Virus record (IMG/VR): IMGVR_UViG_3300049436_000016
From: a virus
Length of the DNA stretch: 37,408 bases
Direction: 5' to 3' (one strand)
Within the stretch, counting starts at the first letter, position 1, and each line of letters starts with the position of its first letter. This document shows positions 9,578 through 34,646 of this stretch, piece by piece. The notes beneath the pieces are model-generated. The model made no database searches and was not told where the DNA came from. It saw only the letters and a program-made list of their open reading frames with translations. The position numbers and the translations under genes are program-made.

Positions 9578-9579
9578 GA

Positions 9580-10061: not shown

Positions 10062-10079
10062 CTGATGATCAGGATTAGG

Positions 10080-11096: not shown

Positions 11097-11127
11097 GTGG
11101 CCTATGGAAACAAATCAGAGAGCAACC

Positions 11128-11339: not shown

Positions 11340-11391
11340 GTCTGAAGCGTGTCTTTACGAACGCTTACGAATGAATCGGAAGGGGTAGTAA

Positions 11392-11790: not shown

Positions 11791-11921
11791 ACCACGTTCA
11801 AGAAATCGCCGCAATCGTTGCGGCAATCGCTCTAGTCGCTCTCGTTGCATCAGTCGGAATCAGCGCATTGCTGAAGCCCGTGGGTAGCGTACTGAGCGAC
11901 TGGAAGAGGTTCACGCAATGA
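11787..11921 (+). CDS. Small single-pass membrane protein (44 aa; below the ORF-track cutoff)
   Basis: Hand translation: MNHVQEIAAIVAAIALVALVASVGISALLKPVGSVLSDWKRFTQ. ATGA overlaps at both ends (11787-11790 and 11918-11921). Confidence 0.6.
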   Translation: MNHVQEIAAIVAAIALVALVASVGISALLKPVGSVLSDWKRFTQ

Positions 11922-12124
11922 GCCAGTGTGAACGCCTTCTTGATCGCCTTCAGGTCGCTCCGATCACGCCGCTAGAAGCATGGAGCGAACTAGGCGTGGA
12001 AAGACTCGCTGCGAGAGTTTTTGACTTACGTGAATCCGGTCACCACATCACAAAAGAAACCGTCATTGTCGCCAATCGCTTCGGCGAAGCGTGCCATGTG
12101 GCGCGTTATCGGCTGGTGAAGTAA
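11918..12124 (+). CDS. Winged-helix DNA-binding protein (HTH_39-like)
   Basis: ITPLEAWSELGVERLAARVFDLRESGHHI matches the 'helical domain + RLAARI.ELR..G' signature of that family. Confidence 0.7.
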   Translation: MSQCERLLDRLQVAPITPLEAWSELGVERLAARVFDLRESGHHITKETVIVANRFGEACHVARYRLVK

Positions 12125-12212
12125 TGCAACCGTCTAGCCAAGGACAAAAAAATTGCCCCACGTTGGCGACCTTGCAGGGTCCGTGGGGCTTGAATCATCT
12201 GGAGCAAGTGTA

Positions 12213-12878: not shown

Positions 12879-13192
12879 AGGGGTTTGACTTCTTCATCGC
12901 CTGCTACCGGAACGGGGTTGATCTTCCGGTTCGAATCTTCGCCGACGACAAAGCTCCGATAAATTTCTACCGACCGCATGCCGTGTGCTTCATCAATCTC
13001 GAACTGGACGACGAGCAGAAGCCGGAACACATCGCCCTGATGAACGGGATGGACGTTTCAATCATCGCCGACGAACTCAGCGACAAGGTGCGCGAACTGA
13101 CGAAAGCAATCATCGCCATTCGCCCGAAGCATCTGGCGGTTTGTGCTGGCGAAAACCTGCTTTCGTGGGCTGCGCATAGGGGATGGAAATGA
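12875..13192 (+). CDS. Hypothetical protein (105 aa)
   Basis: ORF track. ATGA overlap with the upstream stop. Confidence 0.75.
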   Translation: MKGFDFFIACYRNGVDLPVRIFADDKAPINFYRPHAVCFINLELDDEQKPEHIALMNGMDVSIIADELSDKVRELTKAIIAIRPKHLAVCAGENLLSWAAHRGWK

Positions 13193-14130
13193 ACCTTATC
13201 GACGCCAATATCGACCTGTCACAGTTCTCCGAGCCTGAAAACGTTCATCAGGTTCGCTCCGCTGACCGATTCAAGAAGCGCACGCTTGACGTATTGGCCC
13301 ACAAGAACGCCGCAATCGGTTCGCCTATGCCGTGGCTCAAGACTCGCGATTTAATCGAACTGAGGGCCGGGGAGCTATCAATCTGGACGGGTTACAAGGG
13401 ACACGGGAAGTCGCAAATGCTGTCCCAAGTCATGCTGCACTGCATGCGCCTGAATCAGCGCGTGCTGATCATCTCGCCAGAATTCAAACCGGAAGAGGTT
13501 CTCGCCCGCAAGTGCCGCCAGGAATCAGGATCAAGCCGACCGCCTGAATCATTCGTCAATGACTGGTTCGAGTACGCGAAAACCCGCTTGTGGCTGTTTG
13601 ACCATCAAGGCGCTTTGAAGGCTGACAACGTTGTTTCGCTTTGCCGGTATGCCGTCGCGTCATTCGGTGTGAATCACATCGTGATTGATTCGCTGATGAA
13701 GTGCGGTATCGGCGTAGGGGCTGAAGACTACTCAAAGCAAAAGCACTTCGTCGACAAGCTGCAAAGCGTAGCGCATCAAGCCGGTCCTCATATCCATCTG
13801 GTGGCACACGCCCGCAAGGGATCATCCGACGAAGCGCCGCCAGGACTGCACGACGTTAAGGGAACCAGCGAAATCGGCGACATGGCAGAGAACGTTTTCA
13901 GCGTGTGGAGAAACAAGCCAAAGCACAAATCCATGAGCGCAGGCGACCAGAGCAAGAGCCATGAGCCTGACGCAATCCTTACCTGTGAATCTCAGCGCAA
14001 CGGTAGCGGCTGGAATGGTGCGCTTCAGTTCTGGTTCGATCCGCAATCAGGGCAGTTCCTTGAATCACTGAACGACAACCCGCGCTGCTACACGCCAGCC
14101 GGTGCATCCGAAGAAATCGTGGAGTTCTGA
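13183..14130 (+). CDS. DnaB/Twinkle-like replicative helicase (RecA-fold ATPase domain only)
   Basis: Walker A is TGYKGHGKS and Walker B is HIVIDSLMK, followed by HLVAHARKG and QRNG motifs. The alternative ATG at 13189 overlaps the upstream stop. Confidence 0.8.
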   Translation: MEMNLIDANIDLSQFSEPENVHQVRSADRFKKRTLDVLAHKNAAIGSPMPWLKTRDLIELRAGELSIWTGYKGHGKSQMLSQVMLHCMRLNQRVLIISPEFKPEEVLARKCRQESGSSRPPESFVNDWFEYAKTRLWLFDHQGALKADNVVSLCRYAVASFGVNHIVIDSLMKCGIGVGAEDYSKQKHFVDKLQSVAHQAGPHIHLVAHARKGSSDEAPPGLHDVKGTSEIGDMAENVFSVWRNKPKHKSMSAGDQSKSHEPDAILTCESQRNGSGWNGALQFWFDPQSGQFLESLNDNPRCYTPAGASEEIVEF

Positions 14131-14131
14131 C

Positions 14132-14422
14132 ATGGCCGTGACAGTGACGAAACAGTTCAAAGAGGATTTCGACACATGGGCGGAATACAAGCTCAAGTGG
14201 GGTGATTTCTCGAAGGAGGAAATGGACGAACTGAAGGCCATGCTCCGCAAAGACTTAGCGCCCGGTGAAGACCAGTTGCGCCAAGGGCTGACGCTTATCA
14301 ATTCGGCTGGTGTGGAAGTGCCGGCCATGATCGACAACTACGAAGACCGCATCAAGTGCTGGACAAACTACTTCGCCGCTTGTGCGAAAGAAATCCGCGC
14401 CCGGTACAAGGTGGCCGCATGA
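14132..14422 (+). CDS. Hypothetical protein (96 aa)
   Basis: ORF track 14102..14422. The ATG at 14132 follows the helicase stop and has GGAG 8 nt upstream. Confidence 0.7.
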   Translation: MAVTVTKQFKEDFDTWAEYKLKWGDFSKEEMDELKAMLRKDLAPGEDQLRQGLTLINSAGVEVPAMIDNYEDRIKCWTNYFAACAKEIRARYKVAA

Positions 14423-14607
14423 AATGGAGCCGCATTAACGACTACGCCCAGCGCTGCGACCCCTGGACGATCTGCGCCATCGGCAACAGCGACGGCTACA
14501 CCTTCGAGCTATGGCACGACAAGCAGCCCGCAGCCGTTGGGCGGTTCAAGTCTCCGGCTCTGGCTAAGGCTGAAGCGATGCGGCAGGAATTTGAGGGGAG
14601 GGTATGA
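14419..14607 (+). CDS. Hypothetical protein (62 aa)
   Basis: ORF track 14356..14607. The internal ATG at 14419 forms an ATGA overlap with the upstream stop. Confidence 0.65.
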   Translation: MKWSRINDYAQRCDPWTICAIGNSDGYTFELWHDKQPAAVGRFKSPALAKAEAMRQEFEGRV

Positions 14608-15197
14608 GCATCCCAAAGAAACCCAGCCAGTGCCGCATCTGCAAGCAGTCATTCCAGCCCGTCAAGCCGCTGCAATCCGTCTGCTCGTTCGAGTGTGAAG
14701 TACAACGCGGAATCATTCTCGCCGAGAAGTCGAAGCTGAAGCGCGAACAGGCTGAACGAGTCGCAGACTTGGCAAGCCGGAAGATTCTGCGTGAAAGGCT
14801 GAAGACGGCCCGCGACTACATCAAGGAGGCACAAATTGCATTCAACGCCTACATCCGAGAGCGTGACAAAGACCAGCTTTGTATTTGTTGCAATCAACCG
14901 CTGCAATCTGGAACTGTCGGCGGGAACTACGACTGTGGTCATTACCGATCTGTCGGTTCTGCGCCTCATCTTCGTTTTGATCCTCGGAATGCTCACGCGC
15001 AGCGCAAGCAATGCAATCGATGGGGCGCGGGCAGGGCTGTTGATTATCGCCTGGGCCTTATCGCCCGCATTGGGATCGAGGCTGTTGAGTCGCTTGAGTC
15101 AGATCAAGGACAAGCTAAGTACTCAATCGAAGAACTAAAGGAAATCAAAGCCACATACAAAGCCAAGCTGAAGGCATTGAAACGTGGAGAGGGGTGA
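14604..15197 (+). CDS. ninG: NinG/Rap-family structure-specific (HNH-like) endonuclease
   Basis: AFNAYIRERDKDQLCICC...CGHYRSVGSAPHLRFDPRNAHAQRKQCN...IARIGIEAVESLE aligns block by block with lambda NinG as I remember it. Confidence 0.88.
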   Translation: MSIPKKPSQCRICKQSFQPVKPLQSVCSFECEVQRGIILAEKSKLKREQAERVADLASRKILRERLKTARDYIKEAQIAFNAYIRERDKDQLCICCNQPLQSGTVGGNYDCGHYRSVGSAPHLRFDPRNAHAQRKQCNRWGAGRAVDYRLGLIARIGIEAVESLESDQGQAKYSIEELKEIKATYKAKLKALKRGEG

Positions 15198-15471
15198 TCC
15201 TTTGCTGAACGAGTTCGCGCGCGCGCATTTGCAACCCACTCGCGAGCGCGTCGACTGGTTCCGCATCATCGTCGATCTTGAACGCCACGGTTATCGCCAT
15301 GCGGATATGTCGGCGGCCATCGATGTGGCGAAAAGTACGCTGGTTGGCTGGAAAGCGGGAAGCCGGCCGGCGTATGACGAAGGCGAAAGGCTTGTGCTTC
15401 TGTGGTGCATGGTGATGCGAAATGGTCGGGATTCCGTTCCGAAGGTTGACCGATATTCGCACCGTGCCTAA
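15184..15471 (+). CDS. HTH-containing small protein just upstream of the structural module (possible late regulator; start uncertain: GTG 15184 or TTG 15202)
   Basis: ORF track. GYRHADMSAAIDVAKSTLVGWKAG looks like an HTH. The GGAGAGGGG RBS favours the TTG at 15202. Confidence 0.6.
   Translation: MERGDPLLNEFARAHLQPTRERVDWFRIIVDLERHGYRHADMSAAIDVAKSTLVGWKAGSRPAYDEGERLVLLWCMVMRNGRDSVPKVDRYSHRA
15425..15440 (+). promoter_or_regulatory. Late-motif copy 1 (GTCGGGATTCCGTTCC)
   Basis: Exact 16-mer shared with 20473-20488. It lies 58 nt upstream of the first structural-module gene (15498) and is followed by GGTTGACC. Confidence 0.45.
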
Positions 15472-17675: not shown

Positions 17676-19301
17676 ATGGGACTTAATGCAACGCTAGGGC
17701 CGAATGGGTGGGAGGTTGATCCGATTACCGGGCAACCTGTGCTTGCGGAAATCAATCCTGTCACCGGGGGGATTGAATTATCGGCAGGGGCAAAACGCCC
17801 TCCCGGCATCCCGGCGATGAACGCGCTGCCTAAACTGCTTGTTTTCGGCTGCTCAATCGCTCAACAGTGCAATGCCTATCTGCACAGTGCAACAAGCACA
17901 ACGGCTGCGACAGACCTGAAAGCAGGCGCAACGGTCATTACTGTGGCTAACGGGGCGCTGTTCACTGGCGGCCAAAAGGTCACCGTTCCGCTCTATAACG
18001 GCCGCCTCTGGACGACGACGATCAGCAGTATTACCGGGAATGATCTGACGATTGCCGACAAAACTCCCGGACTGATTCGCGCCTCTTCATCCATTACGAT
18101 CACTACGACGCCGACCGTCCCGGCGCTCGATCAAGGCTATGGCGCTGTTAATGCTGCCGTGGCATTGCTCGGCGGCCCCGTTGAGGTTGTGCCGTCCTAT
18201 GGCTATGGTGGAGCTATTTATCGCCAAATGTATGCGGACCTTGAGCGCGATCTGCGTTATTACTCGCCGCACTACGTCGCCCTTCATATGTTTGAAAACG
18301 ACCTGACATCAACGGTTGCTGGTGGTGGCGCAACGATTGAGCAATTTAAGATGTGGGCGAGGCAGATGTCGAGGCTGTGCCTGAATTACGGGGCCATCCC
18401 GATTGTTTATAGCTCAATGCCGTATTACAACTCGGGAACTGGTGCTGGTGTACCTGCCTCGCGGGCCGCTGACTACGACGCGCTAGCTGTGTACGTTGGG
18501 TCTGGACAAAACGGGCAACTGTCTAAAGATGTTCCCGGCGCATGGGGCGACAACTCAGTTTCCTACGGCTGGCTCGACACGTCGAATCCTACTTGGCCTC
18601 GTGCACCGCTGGCCGGCTGGACCGATGGCGTTCACCCGGTTACAAGCAAGCGATTTGCAGTTGGCTTGATCGCCCTGCCAGTTTTGCGTGATTTGCTGCC
18701 ATCCTCACAGTCTCGCCTTGAGCAGATTGTCTCCCCGCTGGAAGTGACTCGTTGTGATGGTACTGGCGGCACCGCGAGTAACCTTGTCGGCGGCTCGATT
18801 GTTCCAAAGAGTCACACCGTCGCGGCATACGGAACGGCTGTCTGCACAACCTCGCGCAACGCTGACGGCACGCTCAAGATGATTGGATCATGGCCGGGTG
18901 CAGCTAACCGCTCAAACGACTACATCACCGATAAATACACGATGACATTCCCGACCGTTTGGGCCGGTGGAACTCAGCGTTTCCGGGTGTACATGCGCGT
19001 TCGGATCAATTCGATGATCGGCATTGCTCAACTATTCCCGGAAGTGACAATCGGTGCCACTGGGGAAAATCATACTGGGCAGACCGGAGTTGATATGTGC
19101 GAGTCGATCCCCGCTGATGGACGCATCATCACCCTTGAATCTCCCCACTTCGCCATCGGTATTGGCGCAACGACGATTCAGCCGGCACTGCTTATCAAGC
19201 CGGTGACGGCAGGAAGCCCGGCCAATGCTGTGATCGATATGGATGTGCTTGAGCTTGGCGTAGTTCCGGTAATCCCGGAAACGCCAGTCGGCTATCTGTA
19301 A
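17676..19301 (+). CDS. SGNH/GDSL-type hydrolase (esterase) with a C-terminal beta-rich domain (541 aa)
   Basis: All four SGNH blocks are present in order: FGCSIA (block I Ser), YGYGGA (II), FENDL (III) and DGVHP (V). About 200 additional C-terminal residues follow. Confidence 0.75.
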   Translation: MGLNATLGPNGWEVDPITGQPVLAEINPVTGGIELSAGAKRPPGIPAMNALPKLLVFGCSIAQQCNAYLHSATSTTAATDLKAGATVITVANGALFTGGQKVTVPLYNGRLWTTTISSITGNDLTIADKTPGLIRASSSITITTTPTVPALDQGYGAVNAAVALLGGPVEVVPSYGYGGAIYRQMYADLERDLRYYSPHYVALHMFENDLTSTVAGGGATIEQFKMWARQMSRLCLNYGAIPIVYSSMPYYNSGTGAGVPASRAADYDALAVYVGSGQNGQLSKDVPGAWGDNSVSYGWLDTSNPTWPRAPLAGWTDGVHPVTSKRFAVGLIALPVLRDLLPSSQSRLEQIVSPLEVTRCDGTGGTASNLVGGSIVPKSHTVAAYGTAVCTTSRNADGTLKMIGSWPGAANRSNDYITDKYTMTFPTVWAGGTQRFRVYMRVRINSMIGIAQLFPEVTIGATGENHTGQTGVDMCESIPADGRIITLESPHFAIGIGATTIQPALLIKPVTAGSPANAVIDMDVLELGVVPVIPETPVGYL

Positions 19302-20420: not shown

Positions 20421-20443
20421 TCCGCTCAAACGTTGCAACCAAG

Positions 20444-20470
20444 GCCCGCCGAGTGCGGGCTTTTTCTTTT
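20444..20470 (+). terminator. Rho-independent terminator after the scaffold gene
   Basis: GCCCGC-cgagt-GCGGGC followed by TTTTTCTTTTT. Confidence 0.85.
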
Positions 20471-21564: not shown

Positions 21565-22020
21565 ATGGCAGAAGTTAATTCCGCACAAGCCGTTGAAATC
21601 GCAGCCGGTCGCAAGCTCAAGCATTGCGACAAGGGCGAAGTTCGCCGCCTTGTCATCACCACGCCGGCTACCTTCGCGCAGCTGGCAATCAACGACACGA
21701 TGGCCTCCGGTCAGTATCTCCCCAAGGGCAGCCGCGTTTTGGCCGTCTGGAAGGGCCACGGCACCGGTACTGCATCCAGCACTTTCGACCTCGGCCTGCG
21801 CAAGCGCGACGGCACGGTGATCGACGCTGACGGTCTGGTTGCCGCATCGGCACTGACCACGGCAACGACTGTTGATCTGTCTGTTGGTACTGGCGCCCTG
21901 GTGGCCGCTGGCGTTGATTACGTCACCACCGATGACGCCGAGGTGTATCTGACCGCAACGGGCGCTGTCCTCGCTGCGAATCAGGATGTCCGCATCACCG
22001 TCGAATATATCGGCCCGTAA
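21565..22020 (+). CDS. Head decoration / cement-like protein (151 aa)
   Basis: ORF track. AAGGAGA RBS. It lies immediately after the capsid gene and before a strong terminator. Beta-rich, Ala/Thr/Val-rich sequence. Confidence 0.6.
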   Translation: MAEVNSAQAVEIAAGRKLKHCDKGEVRRLVITTPATFAQLAINDTMASGQYLPKGSRVLAVWKGHGTGTASSTFDLGLRKRDGTVIDADGLVAASALTTATTVDLSVGTGALVAAGVDYVTTDDAEVYLTATGAVLAANQDVRITVEYIGP

Positions 22021-22049
22021 CAATCTCCCCTGACCGTGCAAACGGTGCT

Positions 22050-22084
22050 GGCCCGGTGGCGTGTGTCGCCGGGCCTTTTTTCTT
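22050..22084 (+). terminator. Rho-independent terminator after the capsid/decoration genes (T-phi-like position)
   Basis: GGCCCGG(t)G...CGCCGGGCC stem followed by TTTTTTCTT. Confidence 0.85.
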
Positions 22085-22095
22085 AGAGGTAGCCC

Positions 22096-22665
22096 ATGTC
22101 GATCAGCGCCGTCTCGATCTGCTCCAATGCCCTGCTAATGCTGGGCGATGCCCCGATCAACAGCTTCGAGGAGAACAACGACCGCACGCGCCTGGTCGCC
22201 AACCTTTACGCCATGCGCCGGGATGCCGTGCTGCGGGCGCACCCGTGGAACTGCGCCATAAAGCGGGTAGTGCTTTCGCCTGATCTGAATGCGCCGTCTT
22301 TCGGCTGGTCTTACCAATTCACCTTGCCGAATGACTGGATTCGCACGCTGTCAGTCGGTGCTGATGGCATCGAAGAGGAATACAAGGAAGAGGGCCGCAA
22401 AATCCTGATGGATTCGAATGCCTGTTTGCTTCGGTACGTGTTCCGCAATGAAGTCGAAGCGACATGGGATTCGCTGCTGATCTACGCGATGACCGAAGTC
22501 ATGAAATCCACCCTGGCTTACGCAGTGACGAAATCCGCCAGCAAGGAAGAATTGACCGAAGCGATTGTGGCCCGTGTGGTCAAGCAAGCGCGCGCCATCG
22601 ATGGGCAGGAAGGCACGCCGGAAACGCTGGGCGACTTCCCGCTGCTCGCCAACCGGATGCGCTGA
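22096..22665 (+). CDS. Tail tubular protein A / gp11-like adaptor (189 aa)
   Basis: ICSNALLMLGDAPINSFEENNDRTRLVANLYAMRRDAVLRAHPWNCA is the characteristic N-terminal pattern of podoviral gp11-like proteins. Size and position both fit. Confidence 0.75.
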   Translation: MSISAVSICSNALLMLGDAPINSFEENNDRTRLVANLYAMRRDAVLRAHPWNCAIKRVVLSPDLNAPSFGWSYQFTLPNDWIRTLSVGADGIEEEYKEEGRKILMDSNACLLRYVFRNEVEATWDSLLIYAMTEVMKSTLAYAVTKSASKEELTEAIVARVVKQARAIDGQEGTPETLGDFPLLANRMR

Positions 22666-22666
22666 C

Positions 22667-24916
22667 ATGCCCAAGATCAAGGTCATCCAATCGAACTTCA
22701 GCGCCGGTGAACTCTCGCCGAGGGCCATGGGCCGCGTGGATATTTCCCGCTACCCGATCACCGCCAAGCGAATGAAGAACGTCATTTCTCGCACGCTGGG
22801 CGGCGCCGAGAAGCGGCCAGGTACTGAGTTCATAGAATCGACCAAGGACAGCACCAAGAAGTCGCGCCTGATCCCGTTCGTGCTGTCGCGTGACGCTTCC
22901 TATGTGTTGGAGTTCGGCGATCTGTACATGCGCGTATTCCTGCCCGATGGCACGCCGGTCATGGATGGACCGTCGCCTTATGAGGTGGTCACGCCCTACA
23001 ACACGGCCGCCGTTCAATTGATGGACTACGCACAATCAGAAGATGCGATGTACCTGTTCCATCAGGATGTGTTCCCGCATCGCGTTCGGACCTTCGCCGA
23101 TGATTATTGGGATTGCTCTCCGGCACCTTTCACTGCGGAACCGTTTGACGAGGTGGGCGACTATTTTGCGGTGGCATTGACGCTATCGGCAAACACGGTC
23201 GGAACCGGGCGCACGATCACTGCGGCATCTGCCGTTTTCCTCGCCGCTGATGTTGGCCGGGCCATTCTGCACAAGGCCGGCGTGGTAGTGATCACCGGCT
23301 TCACCGATAGCCAGCATGTGACCGTCGAGGTCAAGGTGGTTTTCGAATCAACCAGCATCCCTTCCGGTGAATGGAATCTCGACACCAGCCCACAGGCAAC
23401 GCTGACGCCATCGGCCAAAGACCCGATAGGCGCATCGATCACGCTGACCGCTGGGGCCAATGCTTTCCGAAATGGCGACGTTGGGAAGTTTGTCCGCATG
23501 AATTCCGGGCTGCTGAAGATCACCGGATACACCAGCGCAACGATTGTTACCGCAACGATCCTCACTGTTCTTTCTGCTGTCACTGCAGCGCCGGCAATGG
23601 CCTGGACACTTGAATCGTCGGTGTGGAACGCATCAAACGGTTACCCGCGCACCGGGACGATGTTCGAGCAGCGCCTTGTTACCGCAGGCAGTCGGCGCTA
23701 TCCGCAGACCGTTTGGGGTTCGCGTACCGGCGAAGAATTGGATTTCACCAAAGGGGTCGCTGATGACGATGCGTTCATCTTCACGGTGGCCAACGAAGCG
23801 AACCTGATCAACTTCCTCGTTTCGTCGCGCAATCTGCTGATGCTGACCTATGGCGGCGAATACTCGCTGAACTCTGGCTCAGAGAAGCCAATCACCCCGA
23901 CCAACGTGCAGATCAAGCCGCAGTCGCCCTATGGCTGCAGCACATCGCGCCCGGTTCGCGTCGGCAAGGAAACGCTGTTCGCGCAACGGGCCGGCAAGCG
24001 CATCCGCGCCATGGGCTACCGCTATGACGAGGACGGCTACAAGTCGCCCGACATCTCTACGCTGTCCGAGCATCTGGCTGAGACCGGTGTGGCTGGCATG
24101 TGCCTGCAGCAAGAACCCGATCCGATTGTGTGGGCATGGATGAACAACGGCATGCTGGTATCGATCACCATTGACCGTGATCTGGATGTGATTGCTGTGA
24201 CATGGCACGAAACGCAAGGGGCTGTCGAATCGGTGGCTGTCATCCCGGCATCGGACAGCGAGCAGGTATGGATGATCGTACGCCGCTCGGTCAATGGGTC
24301 CATCGTGCGCTACGTCGAGCGCATGCGCCCTGATTGGTATCCGGTCTATGGGACCGTGGCACCTGACACCAACATTTTCCCACCGCAGCCGCAGCCGTTT
24401 AGCTGGGGATTTCAGCTTGACTGCGCGGTGACCGATGACGACGCCACGGGCAAGGCTACATGGACCGGGCTGGATCATCTCGAGAGCGAAACGGTGCACT
24501 GCATCGCCGACGGTGTGCATATGGGTACGTTCGTTGTGACTTCCGGGGCGATCACCTTGCCCCGCGCCGCCAAGCGCGTCCTGATCGGCCTGCTGTTCCT
24601 GCCCGAGATTGTCACGCTGACGCCCGAGATTCAGGGCGCATCCGGAACGATTCAAGGCGATGCCATGAGTACCAATCGCGTCACGGTTCGCCTGTATCGG
24701 ACCATCGGGTGCACGGTCAATGGTCAGGAGGTCGCATCCGGCCGCGTCATTGGTCCGGACCAGCTGGACACCATCCCCGAAATATTCACCGGAGACAAGG
24801 ACGTTTCCACCATCGGCTGGAAGCGTGGTGTTTCAGAAATAACCGTTTCACAAGATTCCCCCCTGCCGTTTCACCTGCTCGCGGTCGTTCGCGAAATCAC
24901 CATCAATGGAGGCTGA
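22667..24916 (+). CDS. Tail tubular protein B / gp12-like nozzle (749 aa)
   Basis: ORF track 22565..24916. The ATG at 22667 lies 1 nt after the upstream stop. MPKIKVIQSNFSAGELSPRAMGRVDISRYPITAKRMKNVISRTLGGAEKRPGTEF is the typical N-terminus of this family. Confidence 0.8.
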   Translation: MPKIKVIQSNFSAGELSPRAMGRVDISRYPITAKRMKNVISRTLGGAEKRPGTEFIESTKDSTKKSRLIPFVLSRDASYVLEFGDLYMRVFLPDGTPVMDGPSPYEVVTPYNTAAVQLMDYAQSEDAMYLFHQDVFPHRVRTFADDYWDCSPAPFTAEPFDEVGDYFAVALTLSANTVGTGRTITAASAVFLAADVGRAILHKAGVVVITGFTDSQHVTVEVKVVFESTSIPSGEWNLDTSPQATLTPSAKDPIGASITLTAGANAFRNGDVGKFVRMNSGLLKITGYTSATIVTATILTVLSAVTAAPAMAWTLESSVWNASNGYPRTGTMFEQRLVTAGSRRYPQTVWGSRTGEELDFTKGVADDDAFIFTVANEANLINFLVSSRNLLMLTYGGEYSLNSGSEKPITPTNVQIKPQSPYGCSTSRPVRVGKETLFAQRAGKRIRAMGYRYDEDGYKSPDISTLSEHLAETGVAGMCLQQEPDPIVWAWMNNGMLVSITIDRDLDVIAVTWHETQGAVESVAVIPASDSEQVWMIVRRSVNGSIVRYVERMRPDWYPVYGTVAPDTNIFPPQPQPFSWGFQLDCAVTDDDATGKATWTGLDHLESETVHCIADGVHMGTFVVTSGAITLPRAAKRVLIGLLFLPEIVTLTPEIQGASGTIQGDAMSTNRVTVRLYRTIGCTVNGQEVASGRVIGPDQLDTIPEIFTGDKDVSTIGWKRGVSEITVSQDSPLPFHLLAVVREITINGG

Positions 24917-24917
24917 C

Positions 24918-25370
24918 ATGATCAGACCGGCAACCGTCGAAGACATCCCGCGCATTGTCGAACTCGGCAATATGCTGCATCAGGAATCGCGCTACGCAGC
25001 CATTTCGTTCAGCGAAGAAAAGGTGACGGCTCTGATGACGCACCTGATTACCATCGAAGGCGTGGTGTTTGTCGCCGAAGTTGATGGGGAAATCGTCGGC
25101 GGAATCGCTGGCAGCGTGACTGAGTTCTGGTTCTCGACCGAAAAGCAGGCTTTCGATTATTCGTTTTTCCTGGCACCGGAAGCCCGCCACGGCATGCAGG
25201 CGGTTCGCCTGATGGCGGCTTTCGAGAACTGGGCAAAGCTGCAAGGGGTGCGTCAGATCGACATGGGGATCACCACTGACATTCACGTCGACCAGTCTGC
25301 GCGGCTGTACAACGGCATGGGCTACAAGGATTGCGGCCGGCTGTTCGTCAAGGAGTTGCAATGCTCGTGA
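24918..25370 (+). CDS. GNAT-family N-acetyltransferase (150 aa)
   Basis: ORF track 24906..25370. GGAGG lies 5 nt before the ATG at 24918. GNAT layout: VFVAEVDGEIVGGIAG...FFLAPEARHGMQAVRLMAAFENWAK...ARLYNGMGY. Confidence 0.8.
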   Translation: MIRPATVEDIPRIVELGNMLHQESRYAAISFSEEKVTALMTHLITIEGVVFVAEVDGEIVGGIAGSVTEFWFSTEKQAFDYSFFLAPEARHGMQAVRLMAAFENWAKLQGVRQIDMGITTDIHVDQSARLYNGMGYKDCGRLFVKELQCS

Positions 25371-26293
25371 TCGAAAAATGCACCGTTGCCGATATTGAAA
25401 ACGCGCCGAACATAGCCGAGATTCTGGCCGAGTACGCCAAGGAATGCGCCACCGATGGTGCCGGCCTGTCATCTCCACAGTGGGACATTTACCGTGCCAT
25501 CGAAGCATCCGGGGCGCTGCAATCGTTTGGTGCGTTCGTCGATGGGGTGATGGTCGGGTTCATCACGGTGGCAGTGATGCGCCGGCCGCACTATGACCAG
25601 CCGATTGCCAGCTATGAATCGTATTTCGTGCTGGAACGTTTCCGCAAAACAGGGGCTGGAATTGCGTTGTTGCGGAAGGCCAAGGAATACGCGAAGGACA
25701 GCAGCGCACCTGGGCTGTTCGTTAATGCATCGGTCGGCAGTGATCTTGATCGAGTGCTATCCGGAATCGGAGCAAGGCACACGCATAACGTTCGATTCAT
25801 CCCGCTTACCAACCGGGCGGTCGCGAACAATCCACCTCGGTTTCAAGCGATGCCGGAATCCATTCGCGATCAGGTCGGAAAATTCCGTGATGCAATTGAA
25901 TCGGTTGGCGTCAAGTCAATGCACACCGACCACGTTCTGCACGCCGGAACCTACGCCAGAACGATGAAACTTGAAGCCGGTCACGTTTTGGTAGGCACCG
26001 TCGTTCAGGTCGACACCGTTGTGATCTTCCACGGCAAGGCAAAGGTATTCGTTGGTTATGGGTGGGTGTTGCTTGACGGGTATCACGTCATACCAGCCTC
26101 GGCGATGCGGCAACAGGTGTTTGAGTCGATTACTGATTGCTATATCACCGCCATTTTTGCGACCGATGCAACCACCGTCGAAGAAGCCGAGGCTCAGGCA
26201 ACCAGCACCCCGAACGCGCTTCTTTCGCGAGCCAAAGAAAGCTGCAACACGATTTTTAAATCAGGAGGTTCCCAATGTCTTACGCAGCCGTAG
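25361..26293 (+). CDS. GNAT acetyltransferase domain fused to a C-terminal beta-rich domain of unknown function (310 aa)
   Basis: ORF track 25331..26293. AAGGAG lies 6 nt before the ATG at 25361. Motif A is FRKTGAGIALLRKAKEYA (R-x-x-G-x-G). About 150 C-terminal residues (HVLHAGTYARTM...VLLDGYHVIPA...) look cupin/beta-barrel-like. Confidence 0.75.
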   Translation: MLVIEKCTVADIENAPNIAEILAEYAKECATDGAGLSSPQWDIYRAIEASGALQSFGAFVDGVMVGFITVAVMRRPHYDQPIASYESYFVLERFRKTGAGIALLRKAKEYAKDSSAPGLFVNASVGSDLDRVLSGIGARHTHNVRFIPLTNRAVANNPPRFQAMPESIRDQVGKFRDAIESVGVKSMHTDHVLHAGTYARTMKLEAGHVLVGTVVQVDTVVIFHGKAKVFVGYGWVLLDGYHVIPASAMRQQVFESITDCYITAIFATDATTVEEAEAQATSTPNALLSRAKESCNTIFKSGGSQCLTQP

Positions 26294-26751
26294 TTGCGGC
26301 AGTTGCGGCAGTTGCTGGGACGGCGACAAGCGTCTATTCCCAGCAGCAAGCCGCCAAGGCCCAGCAAGAGAACGCCAACGAGCAGGCCAAGATTGCCATT
26401 GATCAGGCTGCTGGTGAAGCAGATGCCCGCAAGGCGCAGGCCGAGAAGATTCGCAAGCTGGGCAATTTCCAGCGCGGTGAGGCCAAGGCAGCACTGGCCG
26501 CGTCCGGGGTGAAGCTCGGCGAAGGAACGGCGCTCGAAGTCGATAAGTCGATCATCAAGAATTCGGAAGACGATGCGTTGTCAGCCATCCTGAGCGGTGA
26601 TCGCATCGTCAAGTCAGCAGGCCGTGAGGCAGACAGCTTGATCAAGGCCGGCCAGAACGCCCGAAAGAACGCAAACATGCAATCGGCAGCGACCGTTCTT
26701 TCTTCGGCTGGTTCTATCGCATCGGGGTGGAAGACCCCGGCCAAGCAGTGA
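26275..26751 (+). CDS. Internal virion / ejection protein, gp14-like (158 aa; N-terminal hydrophobic helix)
   Basis: MSYAAVVAAVAAVAGTATSVY..., then A/K/Q-rich helical sequence. AGGAGG RBS. Its position is after the nozzle gene. Confidence 0.65.
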   Translation: MSYAAVVAAVAAVAGTATSVYSQQQAAKAQQENANEQAKIAIDQAAGEADARKAQAEKIRKLGNFQRGEAKAALAASGVKLGEGTALEVDKSIIKNSEDDALSAILSGDRIVKSAGREADSLIKAGQNARKNANMQSAATVLSSAGSIASGWKTPAKQ

Positions 26752-26758
26752 GGCACCC

Positions 26759-28789
26759 ATGAAAATACCTGTCGGTAACTTTGGCCTGCAAGTCGCCCAG
26801 CCAGGGCCGCGTCCTCGTCTTTCACCCGGAGAGTTCGACAACGGCGCAGAAGGCATGCAGCAAGCTGGCCGCGCGATTACGAATGCCGGTCTTTCGATGA
26901 TGGATGCGGTCAACAAGCAAGCCGAGGAAGAGAAGCGCCAGAATCAGGCGCTCGCCAAGGCTAAAGCAGCGAATGCCATCCTCGACCATGAAACCGCAAT
27001 CAGCGGGATCACTGAGGACATTAAGCTACGCTTGGCCGATGGCAGCCTGAAACATGGCGATGCGGCCAAGGAATACCAGAACCGCGTTGGCCAGATTAAA
27101 CCGAATACCATCGATGGAATTGATCCTGTCACACAGGAGAATTACGCCAAAGGCCTGAAGCGTGCCGAGTTCTCTGGCGAGAAGACGCTGAACGGCGCTA
27201 TCGCTGGTGCGAGGACGGCAGAATTCCGTGGTCAGGCTGATGGATTACTCGACAAGATCGGCAAGAGGGCCAGCCTGCCCGGCGCCAGCGTCGAACAGTT
27301 GAACGCCTATATCGACACACCGGACGCCGAGGCTATGGGACGCGCTGCCTATGGTGCAGCATGGGACAAGAAGAAGCAGGACTGGAAGGACAACAACTGG
27401 AACGCCAACCTGAACCAGCAGGCCATGGCGGCGCGCAACGATGTGAAGTCGATCGACTCGCTGATGCAGCGCATAACCTCCGGCGATATGTCCGACAAGC
27501 TGGATTCAGACAAGCGCAACACGCTGGTTGCCAAGCTTGACGGCTACAAGACATCACTGATTCAGCGGCAGGAGGCGGCAGCAGCACGCGCCGAACGTCA
27601 GGCCGAGCGCCACCTGAAGCAAGCCGAGGCTGAATTTAACACCTTCCAGGCCATGAGCGATAAGGGCTTGATGGTAGCACCTGAGTACATCGACCGCGTG
27701 ATGCAGAAGACTTCAGGCACGCCATATCAGCAAGGCATCACTGCACTGGTTGCAGCGGCCAAGGAAAACGGCGGCATTGCCTCGCAGCCCATCGTCCGGC
27801 AGCAGGCCACGCTCGACCAACTAGATGCGCAGATCGCCAGAACAGGCCGAACGCCAGAACTCGACAAGCGGCGCGAACAGGTTGCCAAGGTGCTGCAACA
27901 GAGCCAGTCCGACCTGCGGGAAAACGGATTGCGGGCTGGTCTGGAGCGCGGCGTGATCGATCAGATGGCTCCCATTGATGTCAGCACACCGGAAGCGTTC
28001 GGCGCATCGATTGGCAAGCGTCTGGAGCAGGCGCAGACGGTCGGCCAGTGGTCAGGCTCCAACGTTTCCCCGCTGGATGCTCGCGAGGCTGAACAGGTTC
28101 GCACCATGCTTGAGGCTCTACCGGCCAAGCAACGATCACAGGCCATCGCCACAGTATCGGCAGCGGTCGGCCCCAAGGCGGCGTCAGCTATTGCGCTGCA
28201 ACTAGATAAGCAGTCCAAGCCGCTGGCGCTTGCATTCGCTACGGCTACGCAACAGACAACGGCCGGGCGCTATACCTCTGAGTTGATCCTGAAGGGCGAT
28301 CAAGCCATTCGTGACGGCGCCGTGATGAAGGACGACAAGAAGGTGACCGGCTGGAAGGCCAACATCGCGCAGGAGGTCGATGGCGCGTTCGGCAATGAAC
28401 AAGTCACGCAATCGGTCAAGGACGCGGCCTATTACATCACTGCCGGGATTGCCGCAGAGAATGGCGGGAACGCCGGAACGTCAGACATCAAGCGGGCTGT
28501 TCGGCTGGCTGTTGGTGGCGACATCATCGAACGCAATGGCAAGAAGCTGCCGATTCCGGGCGGCATGGATGCGGCCGACTTTGAGCAGCGGCTGAAGACT
28601 GCCTCTGCAACGGTAGCCAGACAGGGAAGCGTTCGCGTCGGTGGCGTCGAAATGAGTGGCGAAGACTTTGCCGCAGTGCTACCCGGTCAGGAACTGATGC
28701 CGGTCGGGATGGGGCGGTATGCCGTGATCGTCAAGGGCCGCCCGGTGATGAATCAGGCCGGAAAGCCTGTCGTGATCGAGGTGAAGTAA
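26759..28789 (+). CDS. Internal virion / ejection protein, gp15-like (676 aa)
   Basis: ORF track. Long helical A/Q/K-rich protein in the core-protein position. Confidence 0.65.
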   Translation: MKIPVGNFGLQVAQPGPRPRLSPGEFDNGAEGMQQAGRAITNAGLSMMDAVNKQAEEEKRQNQALAKAKAANAILDHETAISGITEDIKLRLADGSLKHGDAAKEYQNRVGQIKPNTIDGIDPVTQENYAKGLKRAEFSGEKTLNGAIAGARTAEFRGQADGLLDKIGKRASLPGASVEQLNAYIDTPDAEAMGRAAYGAAWDKKKQDWKDNNWNANLNQQAMAARNDVKSIDSLMQRITSGDMSDKLDSDKRNTLVAKLDGYKTSLIQRQEAAAARAERQAERHLKQAEAEFNTFQAMSDKGLMVAPEYIDRVMQKTSGTPYQQGITALVAAAKENGGIASQPIVRQQATLDQLDAQIARTGRTPELDKRREQVAKVLQQSQSDLRENGLRAGLERGVIDQMAPIDVSTPEAFGASIGKRLEQAQTVGQWSGSNVSPLDAREAEQVRTMLEALPAKQRSQAIATVSAAVGPKAASAIALQLDKQSKPLALAFATATQQTTAGRYTSELILKGDQAIRDGAVMKDDKKVTGWKANIAQEVDGAFGNEQVTQSVKDAAYYITAGIAAENGGNAGTSDIKRAVRLAVGGDIIERNGKKLPIPGGMDAADFEQRLKTASATVARQGSVRVGGVEMSGEDFAAVLPGQELMPVGMGRYAVIVKGRPVMNQAGKPVVIEVK

Positions 28790-29991
28790 TGGGACTGCTC
28801 GACGCCTACGAAGACAGCGCCAACACTGCGCTTCGTGTCATGGATGCCCGCCCGGTTGAACTTGATAAACCAAAGCCGAAGCATTCCGCATGGTCTGCAC
28901 CAATTCGGGCAGTTGCTGCCGCTGGCGCTGAGGTATTGGGCAACGTGGTCGACACGGCCGCAGCAGCTGGGCAGGTGGCCGCATCGGTCGGAGGCATAAC
29001 GCCCGGTTTCGATGCACAGAACAACCGGCAGCAGTCGCTTGACGCGATGGACACGCTGAAGACTGAAGGAATCAACTGGCGCACCGATGAAGGGCAGCAG
29101 GCTTACCGGTTCGGCGCCGATCTTCGCCCTGATCCGCAAACGGCCGGCACTGCTGAAAACCTTGTGTTCTCGCTGACCAAAGGATTGACCAAAGCCATCG
29201 GCGCGGCAGCAACGCTTGGCCCGATAGCTGGCGCCGCAGCGTTCGGCGGGTCGGAAGGCATGACCGCATCGGAAGACCTTGCCGTGCAGGGCGTTGATCA
29301 GGAAACGCGCACCAAGGTCGGCTTGGTAACCGCTGGCTTCAATGCGGCCGGCGTTGCTCTGCCAGTGGCCGGGCAGACGCTGAAGCAGACGGCGGGGCTA
29401 GTTGTCACTGGCGGCCCGCTGTCGTTCATGGCCCAGCAGCAGGCGACGCGCTCCATTCTCGAGAATGCCGACTATGGCGAGATCGCCAAGCAATATGACC
29501 CGCTTGATCCGGTTGGTCTGACCGTTTCCACGCTGCTCCCGGCCGGCTTTGCTGCCTATGCCAAGCGCGGCGGGTTCGGTAAGCCGGCTGTTTCGCAGGA
29601 AGCGGTCGATGCGGCGATGGTGCAGAACCTGACGGCGGTTCGCGATCTGCACGAATCTGTTTTCCCAGGCGAGAAGCCAATCACCGACTTCGAACCGCCC
29701 AAGCAATCGGCCCCTGATCCAGCGGTCAAGGATTCCTTGACGACTCAGCAGGCAGCGAACACAGAAACACCTGACGCCTACGCTTCCCGCGTCGACCAGC
29801 TGCTGAAAGACCAGCCCGAAATCGTTGCCCGCCTGGACGATGCCGGTCAGCCGGTGAAGTTGGCCGACGAACTGGAAGTCATCAAGAAGCAGGCGCAAGA
29901 GGGAACGGATACCGAGTTTGGGGCGCTCGACGCACCGCTGCTGAAGGTAGCCGCCGAGTGCGCGCTGGCTATAGGAGCAGTAGGGCTATGA
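28789..29991 (+). CDS. Internal virion protein (400 aa)
   Basis: ORF track. TAATG start/stop overlap. Ala/Gly-rich hydrophobic central segment. Confidence 0.65.
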   Translation: MGLLDAYEDSANTALRVMDARPVELDKPKPKHSAWSAPIRAVAAAGAEVLGNVVDTAAAAGQVAASVGGITPGFDAQNNRQQSLDAMDTLKTEGINWRTDEGQQAYRFGADLRPDPQTAGTAENLVFSLTKGLTKAIGAAATLGPIAGAAAFGGSEGMTASEDLAVQGVDQETRTKVGLVTAGFNAAGVALPVAGQTLKQTAGLVVTGGPLSFMAQQQATRSILENADYGEIAKQYDPLDPVGLTVSTLLPAGFAAYAKRGGFGKPAVSQEAVDAAMVQNLTAVRDLHESVFPGEKPITDFEPPKQSAPDPAVKDSLTTQQAANTETPDAYASRVDQLLKDQPEIVARLDDAGQPVKLADELEVIKKQAQEGTDTEFGALDAPLLKVAAECALAIGAVGL

Positions 29992-30181
29992 CACAGCCGA
30001 TGAACACCATGCCGATATACACCCGGAACCAGCGACGCGAATACTCCCACGCCTGCCGCCAGTTTCCGAACGTGCAGACGCCTGCCAGCGGAACGACGGC
30101 AAACAAGATGCCGAACACCACTACCAGCCTAATCGGGTAGGGAAACCAGAGAAGGAAATCAAGCATGCACGCAGATTGCAT
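29969..30181 (-). CDS. Possible antisense two-TM membrane protein (70 aa) in the only sizeable gap of the ejection-protein block
   Basis: ORF track 29969..30184 (TTG). Translation ...LDFLLWFPYPIRLVVVFGILFAVVPLAGV...RRWFRVYIGMVFIGCVIALLLL gives two clean TM helices with a basic loop. There is no convincing RBS or promoter. A competing plus-strand 50-aa ORF (29988..30140, ATGA-coupled) shares aligned third codon positions. Confidence 0.35.
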   Translation of the reverse strand: MQSACMLDFLLWFPYPIRLVVVFGILFAVVPLAGVCTFGNWRQAWEYSRRWFRVYIGMVFIGCVIALLLL

Positions 30182-32693: not shown

Positions 32694-33016
32694 TGCGACA
32701 GGATCAAATCAGCCGTTTGCAAGACTTGGCCGAATCAGTCGGCGAAGTGTTTCTGGAAGAGGCCGACCCAAACAATTGGAACGGGGCCGGGCTTCCTCTA
32801 TCATCGCTGGATTCGGATACCCGAGGGAATCGCTATTGGGACAAGAAGAACGCCATTCAGACCGGTTCTTTGTTGGCGCGCATTCTCGACCTGAAGGACC
32901 GCGACAAGGGCCACGGCGCCCCGCCGACCCCGGAAGATGATGCAGACAAGGAAATCAAGCGTTTCGAGAAACAGGCAAAGGACTTGATCGGTGCAATCCA
33001 GCGCGGCGCGGGATAA
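32693..33016 (+). CDS. Probable small terminase subunit (107 aa)
   Basis: ORF track 32690..33016. GGGAGG lies 6 nt before the ATG at 32693. It lies directly upstream of, and overlaps, the large terminase gene. The call is positional only. Confidence 0.5.
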   Translation: MRQDQISRLQDLAESVGEVFLEEADPNNWNGAGLPLSSLDSDTRGNRYWDKKNAIQTGSLLARILDLKDRDKGHGAPPTPEDDADKEIKRFEKQAKDLIGAIQRGAG

Positions 33017-34646
33017 CGATCCGGGGATACGTTTCGTTGCCTTCTTCCTCGCATGGGCTAACCTCATGCGGTGGAAGGTTCCGAACATCCACATTCGCGC
33101 CTGTTACTGGCTGGCGACTCGCGGCGATCTGTCGGTGCTTCGGTGCTTCCGTGGCTTCGGTAAATCAACGCTGCTGGCCGTCTATAACGCCTGGCGGTAT
33201 TCGGAAAGCAAGGACTACCGGATTCTTCACCAAGGCGACCAAGACGGCACCGCATACAAGACCAGCCGCGACACCAAGCGGGTATTGATGCGTCACCCCT
33301 GGACGCGGCATCTTGTCGCGTTGCGTGGCGAATCTTCGTTCTGGTGGGTTCCCGGCGCTGACGATGAACGAAACCCGTCAATGCAGGCGGCCGGCATCAT
33401 GTCGAACATCACATCATCACGCGCTGACGAAGTGCAGAACGATGACGTCGAGGTTCCCCGCAATATCCGAACGCCAGAGGCGCGGGAAACGCTGCGCTAT
33501 CGGCTTGGCGAGCAGACGCACATTCTTGTCCCCGGTGGTCGCAAGCTCTACATCGGAACCCCGCACACGCACGATTCACTCTATGACGAGATGGAGTCTA
33601 TGGGCGCCGACTGCCTGACCATTCAAATGTTCGCCGACGAGTTCCGCGTCGAGAAGGCAACGGCCAAAGAATACCGCGTGCCGTTCAAGCCTGACTTTGT
33701 GTTTTCCGGGATCGGAAAGCAGTCGAAGCTATTGGCCGAAGGCGTTGATTTCACGCTGACCAAGAAGGGTATCAGGTTCGAAGAAGCCCCCGGTTGCCTG
33801 ATTGACTGCTATGCGGGAAGCGCATGGCCTGAACGATTCACCCGCGACGAGATGGAGAAGCGGCGCCGGGAGACACGCACGGTCAACGAGTGGGATTCGC
33901 AGTATCAACTCCACTCGAAACCAGTGTCGCAGATTCGCCTCGATCCGGATTGGATCATTCCGTATGACGTCGAACCGGTCATCAGGTACGCAAACCGCAC
34001 CGCGTCAATGTGGCTTGGGAAGGCGAAAATTGCCGGCATGTCGGCACGCTGGGACCCGGCGTCCGGGAAGATTCGCAGCGACGTTTCTGCATTTGCGCTG
34101 GTGCTGCAGGATGAATACGGCCGGCGCTACCTGCACCGTATGGAGCAATTGACTGGCGAAGTGGCGCAATTCACAGAGGACGGGAAGCGCATTATCGGCG
34201 GCCAAGTGTTCCAGATTTGCGAGCTTGTGCAGAAGTTCAGCATTCCGCGCATTACGGTCGAGACAAACGGCATCGGCGGATTCGCTCCGGCCGTCCTGAA
34301 GGCCGCACTGAAACAGAGAAAGCTAATCTGCGGGGTATCGGACGAACTCGCCATTGAGAACAAGAACAAGCGCATCCTTGAAGCCTACGAAGGCCCGATG
34401 TCATCAGGAATGATGTGGGGACATAGTTCAGTGCTGGACGGTCCGTTCAGGGGGCAGATGAAAGATTTCAATCCGGAAACCAAGAACAACGCCGACGATT
34501 ACCTTGACGCCGGCGCCGGGGCCATTACTGACACGCCAGAGCGCATCAATGTGCGCGTTGTGGAGGCAGAACGCGAGCCAGATCGGCACAACTGGCGCGG
34601 CAATTCCGGGGTGCATGAATACGAATTTAGTCGGGATTCCGCTTGA
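32991..34646 (+). CDS. terL: Terminase large subunit (T7 gp19-like)
   Basis: Walker A is FRGFGKSTLL; Walker B-like is ADEVQNDDVE; the nuclease-domain motif is DDYLDAGAGA. The GTG start at 32991 is uncertain. Confidence 0.88.
   Translation: MQSSAARDNDPGIRFVAFFLAWANLMRWKVPNIHIRACYWLATRGDLSVLRCFRGFGKSTLLAVYNAWRYSESKDYRILHQGDQDGTAYKTSRDTKRVLMRHPWTRHLVALRGESSFWWVPGADDERNPSMQAAGIMSNITSSRADEVQNDDVEVPRNIRTPEARETLRYRLGEQTHILVPGGRKLYIGTPHTHDSLYDEMESMGADCLTIQMFADEFRVEKATAKEYRVPFKPDFVFSGIGKQSKLLAEGVDFTLTKKGIRFEEAPGCLIDCYAGSAWPERFTRDEMEKRRRETRTVNEWDSQYQLHSKPVSQIRLDPDWIIPYDVEPVIRYANRTASMWLGKAKIAGMSARWDPASGKIRSDVSAFALVLQDEYGRRYLHRMEQLTGEVAQFTEDGKRIIGGQVFQICELVQKFSIPRITVETNGIGGFAPAVLKAALKQRKLICGVSDELAIENKNKRILEAYEGPMSSGMMWGHSSVLDGPFRGQMKDFNPETKNNADDYLDAGAGAITDTPERINVRVVEAEREPDRHNWRGNSGVHEYEFSRDSA
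34628..34641 (+). promoter_or_regulatory. Late-motif copy 3 (TAGTCGGGATTCCG)
   Basis: Identical 14-mer to 20471-20484. It lies in the last codons of terL, 50 nt upstream of the tail-fibre ATG. Confidence 0.45.

Follow-up and report, generated by a model that had tools for sequence, protein, structure and literature searches.

A GNAT gene and a GNAT–cupin fusion gene at the T7 gene 13 position of a temperate podovirus: candidates for non-packaged late assembly factors

What is the role of the small genes that podoviruses place between the tail nozzle gene and the genes for their ejection proteins? Podoviruses require their gene 13-class assembly factors for infectious particles, yet to our knowledge no explanation of the function of these factors has ever been given. 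The question is raised by two overlapping genes in IMG/VR virus record IMGVR_UViG_3300049436_000016, a stretch of 37,408 nucleotides (the window, below) that comes from a temperate podovirus related to epsilon15, BcepC6B and BPP-1. The first gene, GNAT1, encodes a single acetyltransferase-like domain of the GNAT type; the second encodes another such domain (GNAT2) followed by a beta-rich domain. The initial annotation, made from the sequence alone, had suggested that these proteins may be packaged in the virion and injected with the DNA. The reading that we favour, with slightly more confidence than doubt, is a different one: homology and gene order point to late assembly or modification factors that are not packaged and that would act during procapsid or ejectosome assembly.

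To place the two proteins, we compared them with profile libraries, named phages and solved structures. Both exceed the gathering cut-off of Pfam Acetyltransf_1, GNAT1 with 34.9 bits (cut-off 20.7; E 2e-8) and GNAT2 with 34.7 bits (against the same 20.7; E 2.4e-8), and the profile searches thus uphold the assignment of two tandem GNAT genes. A recent tandem duplication as their origin was rejected (BLASTP E 0.12 between the two). GNAT1 matches phrog_1249 at 7.3e-33 over residues 1–147, is 46% identical to the same-slot gene of Yersinia phage YeP5 and has relatives in 229 phage records (tblastn); a sequence search of solved structures gave no match for it. Its gene lies between a gp12-like nozzle gene and a gp14-like gene, both neighbours being confirmed by profiles, and this is the position of gene 13 in T7, as had been proposed.

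The published record has a bearing on what should be expected there. Hardies et al. reported that T7 internal virion protein A (IVP-A, gp13) matches acetyltransferases by HHpred, that it is needed for morphogenesis and not kept in the virion, that IVP-A homologues exist in epsilon15 and P22, and that relatives of phiRIO-1 have an acetyltransferase-like gene in the slot, which they called nonstructural (PMC4819975); a paper on cobaviruses likewise ties the slot gene to gp13 (PMC6775973). The literature thus already describes a gene with a GNAT fold in this slot. Because T7 gp13 is itself reported to be acetyltransferase-like, a point missed by the initial annotation, a GNAT in this slot is the expected occupant and not an insertion. 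In keeping with this, homologues in phrog_1249 lie between the nozzle or tail gene and the gene for internal virion protein B (IVP-B, the T7 gp14 counterpart) or other internal proteins in YeP5, SIO1, TPWB-05 and CRP-810, and upstream of a small gene and the portal gene in the SP6-like phage UAB_Phi78 and in Vibrio phage VEN; in UAB_Phi78, tube B directly adjoins IVP-B and the slot is empty. Many podoviruses have a gene of this family at one or the other of these two sites.

GNAT1 and T7 gp13 (PF11090 Phage_T7_Gp13, formerly DUF2833; phrog_308) share the slot, a similar size (150 and 138 aa, respectively) and, for gp13 by the published HHpred comparison, a likeness to acetyltransferases (PMC4819975). 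BcepC6B gp13, which occupies the same slot, bridges the two families, with matches to phrog_308 (1.4e-6), phrog_1249 (8.4e-6) and Pfam GNAT (8.4e-6). The two proteins differ in that GNAT1 has no direct match to PF11090 or phrog_308 and belongs to a more canonical GNAT clade, phrog_1249; membership of GNAT1 in PF11090 was rejected, as BLASTP, Pfam, PHROG and shallow hhalign comparisons were all non-significant. With the T7 gp13 profiles unmatched, we file GNAT1 under phrog_1249 as the positional equivalent of gp13, and in the reading that we favour it is the counterpart, in position and in family, of the protein with an acetyltransferase fold that T7 gene 13 encodes.

Within the phrog_1249 group (YeP5, SIO1 gp26.2, Acinetobacter phage TPWB-05, UAB_Phi78 gp35 and VEN gp31) GNAT1 is a clear member. 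Its phages mostly have one such gene, unlike the window, and the motif A of GNAT1, R-H-G-M-Q-A, departs both from the canonical form (R/Q-x-x-G-x-G/A) and from its nearest relatives, which have RGGTAG and similar sequences. Across the alignment of the GNAT1 clade only the motif A arginine is invariant, and position 6 is a small residue (Gly, Ala or Ser).

The second gene presents a different picture. Residues 3–146 of its product align with Bbp24 of phage BPP-1 (33% identity, E 9e-23) and residues 153–302 with BPP-1 Bbp23 (40% identity, E 2e-32). Judged by this homology, the gene joins in frame what BPP-1 encodes as two genes, Bbp24 (GNAT) and Bbp23 (cupin), a fusion that the initial annotation had not recognized. 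We rejected the possibility that the fusion is a frameshift artefact, as four homologues from other samples, 62–87% identical, are also fused. The two halves stand in the same order in BPP-1, where they are encoded by two genes between the large terminase and portal genes and where nozzle and IVP-B are direct neighbours; in the window, by contrast, one chain holds both halves, and its gene occupies the IVP-A slot behind that of another GNAT. T7 has neither a second GNAT nor a cupin.

A structural model of the full-length fused protein (mean predicted local distance difference test score, pLDDT, 79.9) contains two compact globular domains. The GNAT2 domain, modelled with a pLDDT of about 85–95 over most of its length, matches RimI (7n1l) and AAC(3) structures (Foldseek E about 5e-7, target-normalised TM about 0.7); by sequence, it has only weak AAC matches among solved structures, and it matches phrog_1249 at 1.3e-8 over residues 12–124. 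The motif A reported earlier for this protein, R-K-T-G-A-G, is present at residues 95–100. In 61 homologues this loop is strongly conserved (R95 100%, G98 96%, A99 85%, G100 98%).

The C-terminal domain, noted earlier as an additional beta-rich domain, is indeed beta-rich in the structure models and is about 160 aa long. Modelled alone (pLDDT 86.8, predicted TM score 0.79), it is confidently predicted to be a cupin barrel. Its top matches in the PDB are cupin-2 proteins and the cupin domains of dioxygenases (E 1e-4 to 8e-4, target-normalised TM up to 0.73), the fold match spanning residues ~185–270, and its top viral matches are uncharacterised phage proteins. Among the latter we observed BFVD entry A0A6J5PTS6, a 263-aa protein of an uncultured Caudovirales phage named 'SET domain containing', which superimposes on the cupin model with an rmsd of 1.4 over 118 columns at 22% identity; if that name is right, the same cupin is joined there to a lysine methyltransferase, which would hint at a cupin that partners protein-modifying enzymes.

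The domain shares with the cupin (RmlC-like double-stranded beta-helix) superfamily its predicted fold. It differs in that it matches no Pfam family, cupin profiles included, in that it has another conserved motif, and in that its nearest structural relatives are uncharacterised phage proteins; NCBIfam gave one chance-level match (E 0.009, far below cut-off), and a sequence search of solved structures gave none. Specifically, in 128 homologues the conserved residues are H191 (92%), H194 (96%), Y198 (99%), R200 (100%), R250 (99%) and E277 (100%), within and beyond the motif T-x-H-x-L-H-x-G-x-Y-x-R-T, and the classical two-motif cupin metal site (G-x5-H-x-H-x3,4-E; H-x-H ... E ... H) is absent from these conserved residues. 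The conservation of the GNAT2 R-x-x-G-A-G loop and of the cupin H, H, Y, R, R and E residues argues that both domains have probably retained a biochemical activity.

These features raise the possibility that the GNAT and the cupin are enzymes of small-molecule metabolism, which make or modify a late metabolite such as an acetylated polyamine, an amino sugar or a nucleotide-sugar, much as EctA and EctC do in ectoine synthesis. GNAT2 is closest to acetyltransferases of aminoglycosides and other small substrates as well as to RimI, the cupin matches include ectoine synthase and cupins of the sugar isomerase type, and the invariant polar cluster of the cupin looks like a ligand site. The structural matches of the cupin are generic, however, at E about 1e-4 and 9–18% identity with no specific family, and there is neither a Pfam or NCBIfam family nor a classical metal motif to point to such chemistry. 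No other pathway genes lie nearby, and metabolism does not readily account for the constant linkage with genes for head and ejection proteins or for the joining of a gp13-like domain, both described below. We consider this explanation distinctly unlikely.

The cupin model also bears on a database label. In RefSeq and PHROG, the family of the BPP-1 gene bbp23 (L001 9450–9908) and of PHROGs 12032 and 24280 goes by the name of 'short tail fiber protein' or 'tail fiber adhesin'. The listed fold matches of the domain are mostly cupins and for the rest other non-fibre proteins, with no fibre or adhesin fold among them. As the cupin model is confident and the gene always stands beside a GNAT, the tail-fibre label of the Bbp23 family is probably wrong. 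A literature search on Bbp23 returned only unrelated papers.

How widely are these domains distributed, and in what combinations? An exhaustive search with a profile covering both domains (310 positions), its hits sorted afterwards by phmmer, retrieved 5464 proteins with E values of 1e-3 or lower, 433 of them reaching 1e-30 or lower; a word-indexed search found only 7 fused relatives, plus stand-alone cupins at 42–52% identity. Among 164 retrieved sequences the cupin most often stands alone (99), followed by GNAT2 alone (30) and the GNAT2–cupin fusion (23); the remainder have an N-terminal extension joined to GNAT2 (7) or to the cupin (5). In five of the seven proteins that join an extension to GNAT2, the extension resembles ORF13 of phage YA3 (BLASTP 1e-12 to 1e-22), which is annotated as DUF2833, putative acetyltransferase, and the same five extensions have a weaker likeness to T7 gp13 (PF11090 E 0.0033; hhalign 78%, E 1.8e-5). 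A further candidate, P0008, was rejected as a separate 147-aa cupin gene because its gene call is truncated by the contig end.

Individual loci illustrate how the parts are joined and split. One (L018) has a gp13-like–GNAT2 fusion followed by a 161-aa gene, a cupin by position only, and then a gp14-like gene; a second (L017) has a fusion of this kind and, after it, a gene for a cupin that shares 44% identity with the domain in the window; and in a third (L013) GNAT1, GNAT2 and the cupin are three separate genes. A survey of bacteria that took one genome per species and mapped loci by tblastn gave 30 loci, all 30 in Proteobacteria. Two have the order seen in the window, about 11 have the order nozzle, gp13-like, GNAT2, cupin, IVP-B, about 12 resemble BPP-1 (terminase, GNAT2, cupin, portal), one (L024) is satellite-like, and the remainder are partial or unclassified. 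GNAT2 and the cupin are separate open reading frames (ORFs) in 27 of 28 bacterial-genome loci, and the fusion in the window is thus the minority state. In two Cupriavidus prophages of the BPP-1-like group, a gp13-like gene is also kept between nozzle and IVP-B.

In every mappable locus the GNAT2–cupin pair adjoins morphogenesis genes. The unit of a Bbp24-type GNAT and a Bbp23-type cupin is widespread in prophages and metagenomes, and gp13-like, GNAT2 and cupin parts recur beside the gp14-like ejection protein across prophages, variously fused. It is chiefly the gp13-like–GNAT2 and GNAT2–cupin fusions that suggest a physical or functional link between the parts. New at the descriptive level are the GNAT2–cupin fusion, the three-part module with its shifting fusions, and the carriage of this module by satellite-like elements, to which we return below.

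Examination of the junctions shows that both GNAT genes are tightly coupled to the structural genes, and the gap and overlaps described in the initial annotation are confirmed. The GNAT1 ATG (24918) follows the nozzle stop by 1 nt, with GGAGG at 24908–24912, 5 nt upstream; the ATG of the fused gene (25361) overlaps GNAT1 by 10 nt, with AAGGAG at 25350–25355, 5 nt before the start; and the ATG of the gp14-like gene (26275) overlaps the fused gene by 19 nt, with AGGAGG at 26263–26268.

Such translational coupling to nozzle and ejection-protein genes speaks for a reading in which one or both acetyltransferases are packaged with the internal proteins, enter the cell with the DNA and act on host targets as infection begins. 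Ejection of enzymes is known from other podoviruses, an example being the transglycosylase domain of T7 gp16, and the cryo-EM study of BPP-1 covered two gel bands only. Against this stand several observations. The T7 virion does not keep gp13, and in phiRIO-1 relatives the gene at this position is called nonstructural (PMC4819975). Virion mass spectrometry of YA3 gave 13 proteins, seven named and six 'hypothetical', and the text of that paper does not give the slot protein, ORF13 (putative acetyltransferase), as one of the named seven. The BPP-1-like phages encode GNAT2 and the cupin at a great distance from the ejection genes, with terminase on one side and portal on the other. In addition, the fused protein is modelled as two compact globular domains, whereas ejection proteins are described as extensively alpha-helical (PMC4819975). 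The phiGT1 paper and a review of ejection proteins contain nothing on acetyltransferases. Injection of the GNATs has no present support, and we judge it very unlikely; by analogy with T7 gp13 (PMC4819975) and the YA3 virion data, GNAT1 and the GNAT2–cupin protein would instead be absent from the particle.

The module also occurs in three satellite-like elements. One (L005; ENA ERZ26695388 ctg150468) has a repeating unit of ~10.9 kb, e.g. 4491–15414, and is circular or concatemeric. It encodes an integrase, AlpA, an HTH_36 protein, a DnaB helicase, a scaffold homologue, a GNAT2–cupin protein, a gp14-like IVP-B and a 91-aa ORF that matches the scaffold C-terminus only; capsid, portal and terminase genes are absent. 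Identity to the window is 51% for the scaffold, 64% for GNAT2–cupin and 78% for IVP-B. Because these three genes are contiguous in L005 and 5 kb apart in the phage, they appear to have been selected as a morphogenetic set and not captured as one block. L005 looks like a satellite of the podovirus group to which the window belongs, and it may redirect capsid assembly.

The two others, L016 (3993–18053) and L024 (3529–18502), are integrated beside host genes in Rhodocyclaceae metagenome-assembled genomes. They carry an integrase, regulators, DnaB, one or more GNATs, a cupin, IVP-B and three large ejection-protein homologues, together with a rep-like HTH gene and, in L024, iteron-like repeats at 8083–8220; head, tail and terminase genes are absent. 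A search for the boundaries of the satellite-like elements gave no tRNA genes and no convincing att repeats. We describe L016 and L024 as satellite-like elements that carry their own ejection proteins.

This distribution also informs a further alternative, in which the proteins are late effectors directed at the host: made in the infected cell and unpackaged, the GNAT or GNATs would acetylate a host protein involved in transcription, proteolysis or defence, and the place in the operon would only set the timing. A precedent exists in Rac (LUZ19 gp28), a small podovirus GNAT that, like the GNATs of the window, is encoded on the border of the structural genes. Its gene overlaps the first structural gene, and the protein causes cleavage of the host RNA polymerase alpha subunit in a manner that depends on its predicted acetyl-CoA pocket (PMC7552054). 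Rac matches phrog_1249 weakly (4.9e-4), its gene order (GNAT, small virion protein, portal) is that of the phrog_1249 genes in SP6-like phages and VEN, and GNAT2, for its part, retains the canonical cofactor loop. The effect of Rac was seen with protein expressed inside the cell, not delivered by the virion (PMC7552054).

Despite these parallels, Rac differs from the window proteins in its PHROG family (phrog_3986, which is not among the hits of window proteins at E up to 0.01), in its place upstream of the portal and in its shown cleavage of RNA polymerase alpha. That effect is specific to a genus, as the LKA1 homologue at the same position leaves the alpha subunit uncleaved (PMC7552054). Furthermore, in every mappable locus the module tracks morphogenesis genes and not early or host-takeover genes, and the satellite-like elements, which have no capsid genes, keep it beside IVP-B and a scaffold homologue. 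A host-directed role is therefore, in our estimation, improbable, though clearly less so than injection or a metabolic function.

We return to a role in assembly, the reading that we favour. All three domains would be made late, together with the tail and ejection proteins, and would act in the cytoplasm while procapsid and ejectosome are assembled. GNAT2 would be the catalytic subunit that uses acetyl-CoA; GNAT1, or the gp13-like protein in other phages, may be a partner with a divergent cofactor loop, as in tandem-GNAT enzymes with one inactive half; and the cupin domain may bind the substrate or perform a second step. The likeliest substrate would be an ejection protein such as the gp14-like protein. 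A stronger version, in which the gp13-like protein, the Bbp24-type GNAT and the Bbp23-type cupin form an enzyme system whose acylation of ejection proteins is a prerequisite for procapsid loading or for insertion into the host envelope, is speculative and probably does not hold as stated.

Several points weigh against a role in assembly. We know of no acetylated ejection protein, and the roles proposed for the GNAT2 and cupin families are computational predictions. With E cut-offs of 0.1 for PF11090 and 0.01 for phrog_308, neither window protein matches these families, and the shallow hhalign comparison of the GNAT1 clade with T7 gp13 (E 0.12), like BLASTP, is not significant; the link between GNAT1 and T7 gp13 is drawn from synteny, one bridging protein (BcepC6B gp13) and published HHpred statements. 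The absence of the YA3 protein is taken from the text of the paper, not from its supplementary table. BPP-1 has no slot gene, YeP5 and T7 have neither GNAT2 nor cupin, and in the Cupriavidus prophages the two parts are ~9 kb apart. Since either part can be missing, and the parts can lie far from each other, an obligate complex is unlikely. A host target is possible, given by analogy the distant relative LUZ19 Rac, which is encoded beside structural genes and acts on RNA polymerase, and carriage by satellites would also fit an anti-defence or interference role.

The coordinates of the locus and of other features of the window are collected in Table 1.

Table 1. Positions of the slot genes, their domains and motifs, and other features in the window.
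Feature	Position	Strand	Basis
Mom-like / XF1762-family gene	3971-4450	-	phrog_1384 7.5e-33; NCBIfam NF045478 3.9e-50
Terminator-like hairpin upstream of tube A gene	22050-22075	+	11-bp stem, 9 G-C pairs, T run; consensus match only
Tail nozzle (T7 gp12-like) gene	22667-24916	+	phrog_376 4.8e-192, Pfam Phage_nozzle
GNAT1, 150 aa, predicted phrog_1249 acetyltransferase in IVP-A (T7 gene 13) slot	24918-25370	+	Acetyltransf_1, phrog_1249
Fused GNAT2–cupin ORF, 310 aa	25361-26293	+	ORF table and sequence
GNAT2 domain, Bbp24-like	25361-25810	+	Pfam Acetyltransf_1 2.4e-8, BPP-1 Bbp24 identity, model
R95-K-T-G-A-G100 codons, GNAT2 motif A, predicted acetyl-CoA pyrophosphate loop	25643-25660	+	sequence, conservation
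Predicted cupin-fold domain, Bbp23-like, same ORF as GNAT2	25811-26293	+	Bbp23 identity, model, Foldseek
H191-V-L-H-A-G-T-Y-A-R-T201 codons, most conserved cupin motif	25931-25963	+	homologue alignment
Internal virion protein B (IVP-B, T7 gp14-like)	26275-26751	+	phrog_418 6.1e-25, weak Pfam T7_gp14
Remaining ejection/internal protein genes: 676, 400, 842 aa	26759-32693	+	phrog_992, phrog_1145, phrog_684; BcepC6B, YeP5, YA3 homologues

The wider window is organized as follows. The left arm, on the minus strand, carries the Mom-like gene and genes for dUTPase, Gam, Erf and a CI-like repressor; after it come replication genes, portal, a 541-aa ORF, a scaffold-like gene, major capsid, tube A, nozzle, the two GNAT genes, the ejection genes, large terminase and fibre. 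The 842-aa ejection protein is 30–36% identical to those of BcepC6B, YeP5, YA3 and the phiV10/SPN1S group. Prophages of Herminiimonas and Pseudoduganella (L031 and L043) have the gene order nearest to that of the window, and a megablast of positions 22000–30000 against 50,697 phage records gave zero matches, with no close sequenced relative in that set. The large terminase gene (32991–34646) does not precede the portal gene; it comes after the ejection genes and immediately ahead of the fibre gene, an order also seen in L031 and L043. The 541-aa ORF (17676–19301), between the portal and scaffold-like genes, has no PHROG or NCBIfam match.

Two strong terminator-like hairpins stand ahead of the tail genes, one at 20441–20463, directly 3′ of the scaffold-like gene, and the other, listed in Table 1, 3′ of a gene for a 151-aa protein, itself downstream of capsid; these hairpins may attenuate transcription before it reaches the tail and ejection genes. 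From tube A (22096) to past the ejection genes, a consensus scan found just short-stem terminator matches. As there is no further long-stem terminator-like site until ~32 kb, tube A, nozzle, the GNAT genes and the ejection genes look like one late transcription unit.

A third GNAT-like gene had been proposed in the left arm. A GNAT-type fold was a fair guess for it; the gene is on the minus strand, not the plus strand as first given, and it is predicted to belong to a GNAT-fold DNA-modification family and not to be a generic acetyltransferase. The Mom protein of phage Mu modifies DNA and has the GNAT fold (PMC7261163); tRNA-dependent chemistry was reported for it in 2026 (PMC13219725). The presence of the Mom-like gene suggests adenine hypermodification of the phage DNA as an anti-restriction measure.

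These results have implications for the naming and for the biology of this part of the podovirus genome. They suggest that the database label 'short tail fiber protein' should be corrected for the cupin-fold protein. More broadly, a slot with up to three modules (a gp13-like protein, a GNAT that keeps its cofactor loop intact and a cupin whose polar site is invariant) that travels with the gp14-like protein, even into satellite-like elements, yields a testable idea. If it is true that the GNAT modifies an ejection protein, this would be a new step in ejectosome assembly. The stronger version, with all three parts in one enzyme system, would provide a chemical function for the long-unexplained class of assembly factors to which T7 gp13 and P22 gp14 belong; it would likewise account for the retention, by podovirus satellites of a new class, of a copy of the module next to gp14-like and scaffold genes of their own.

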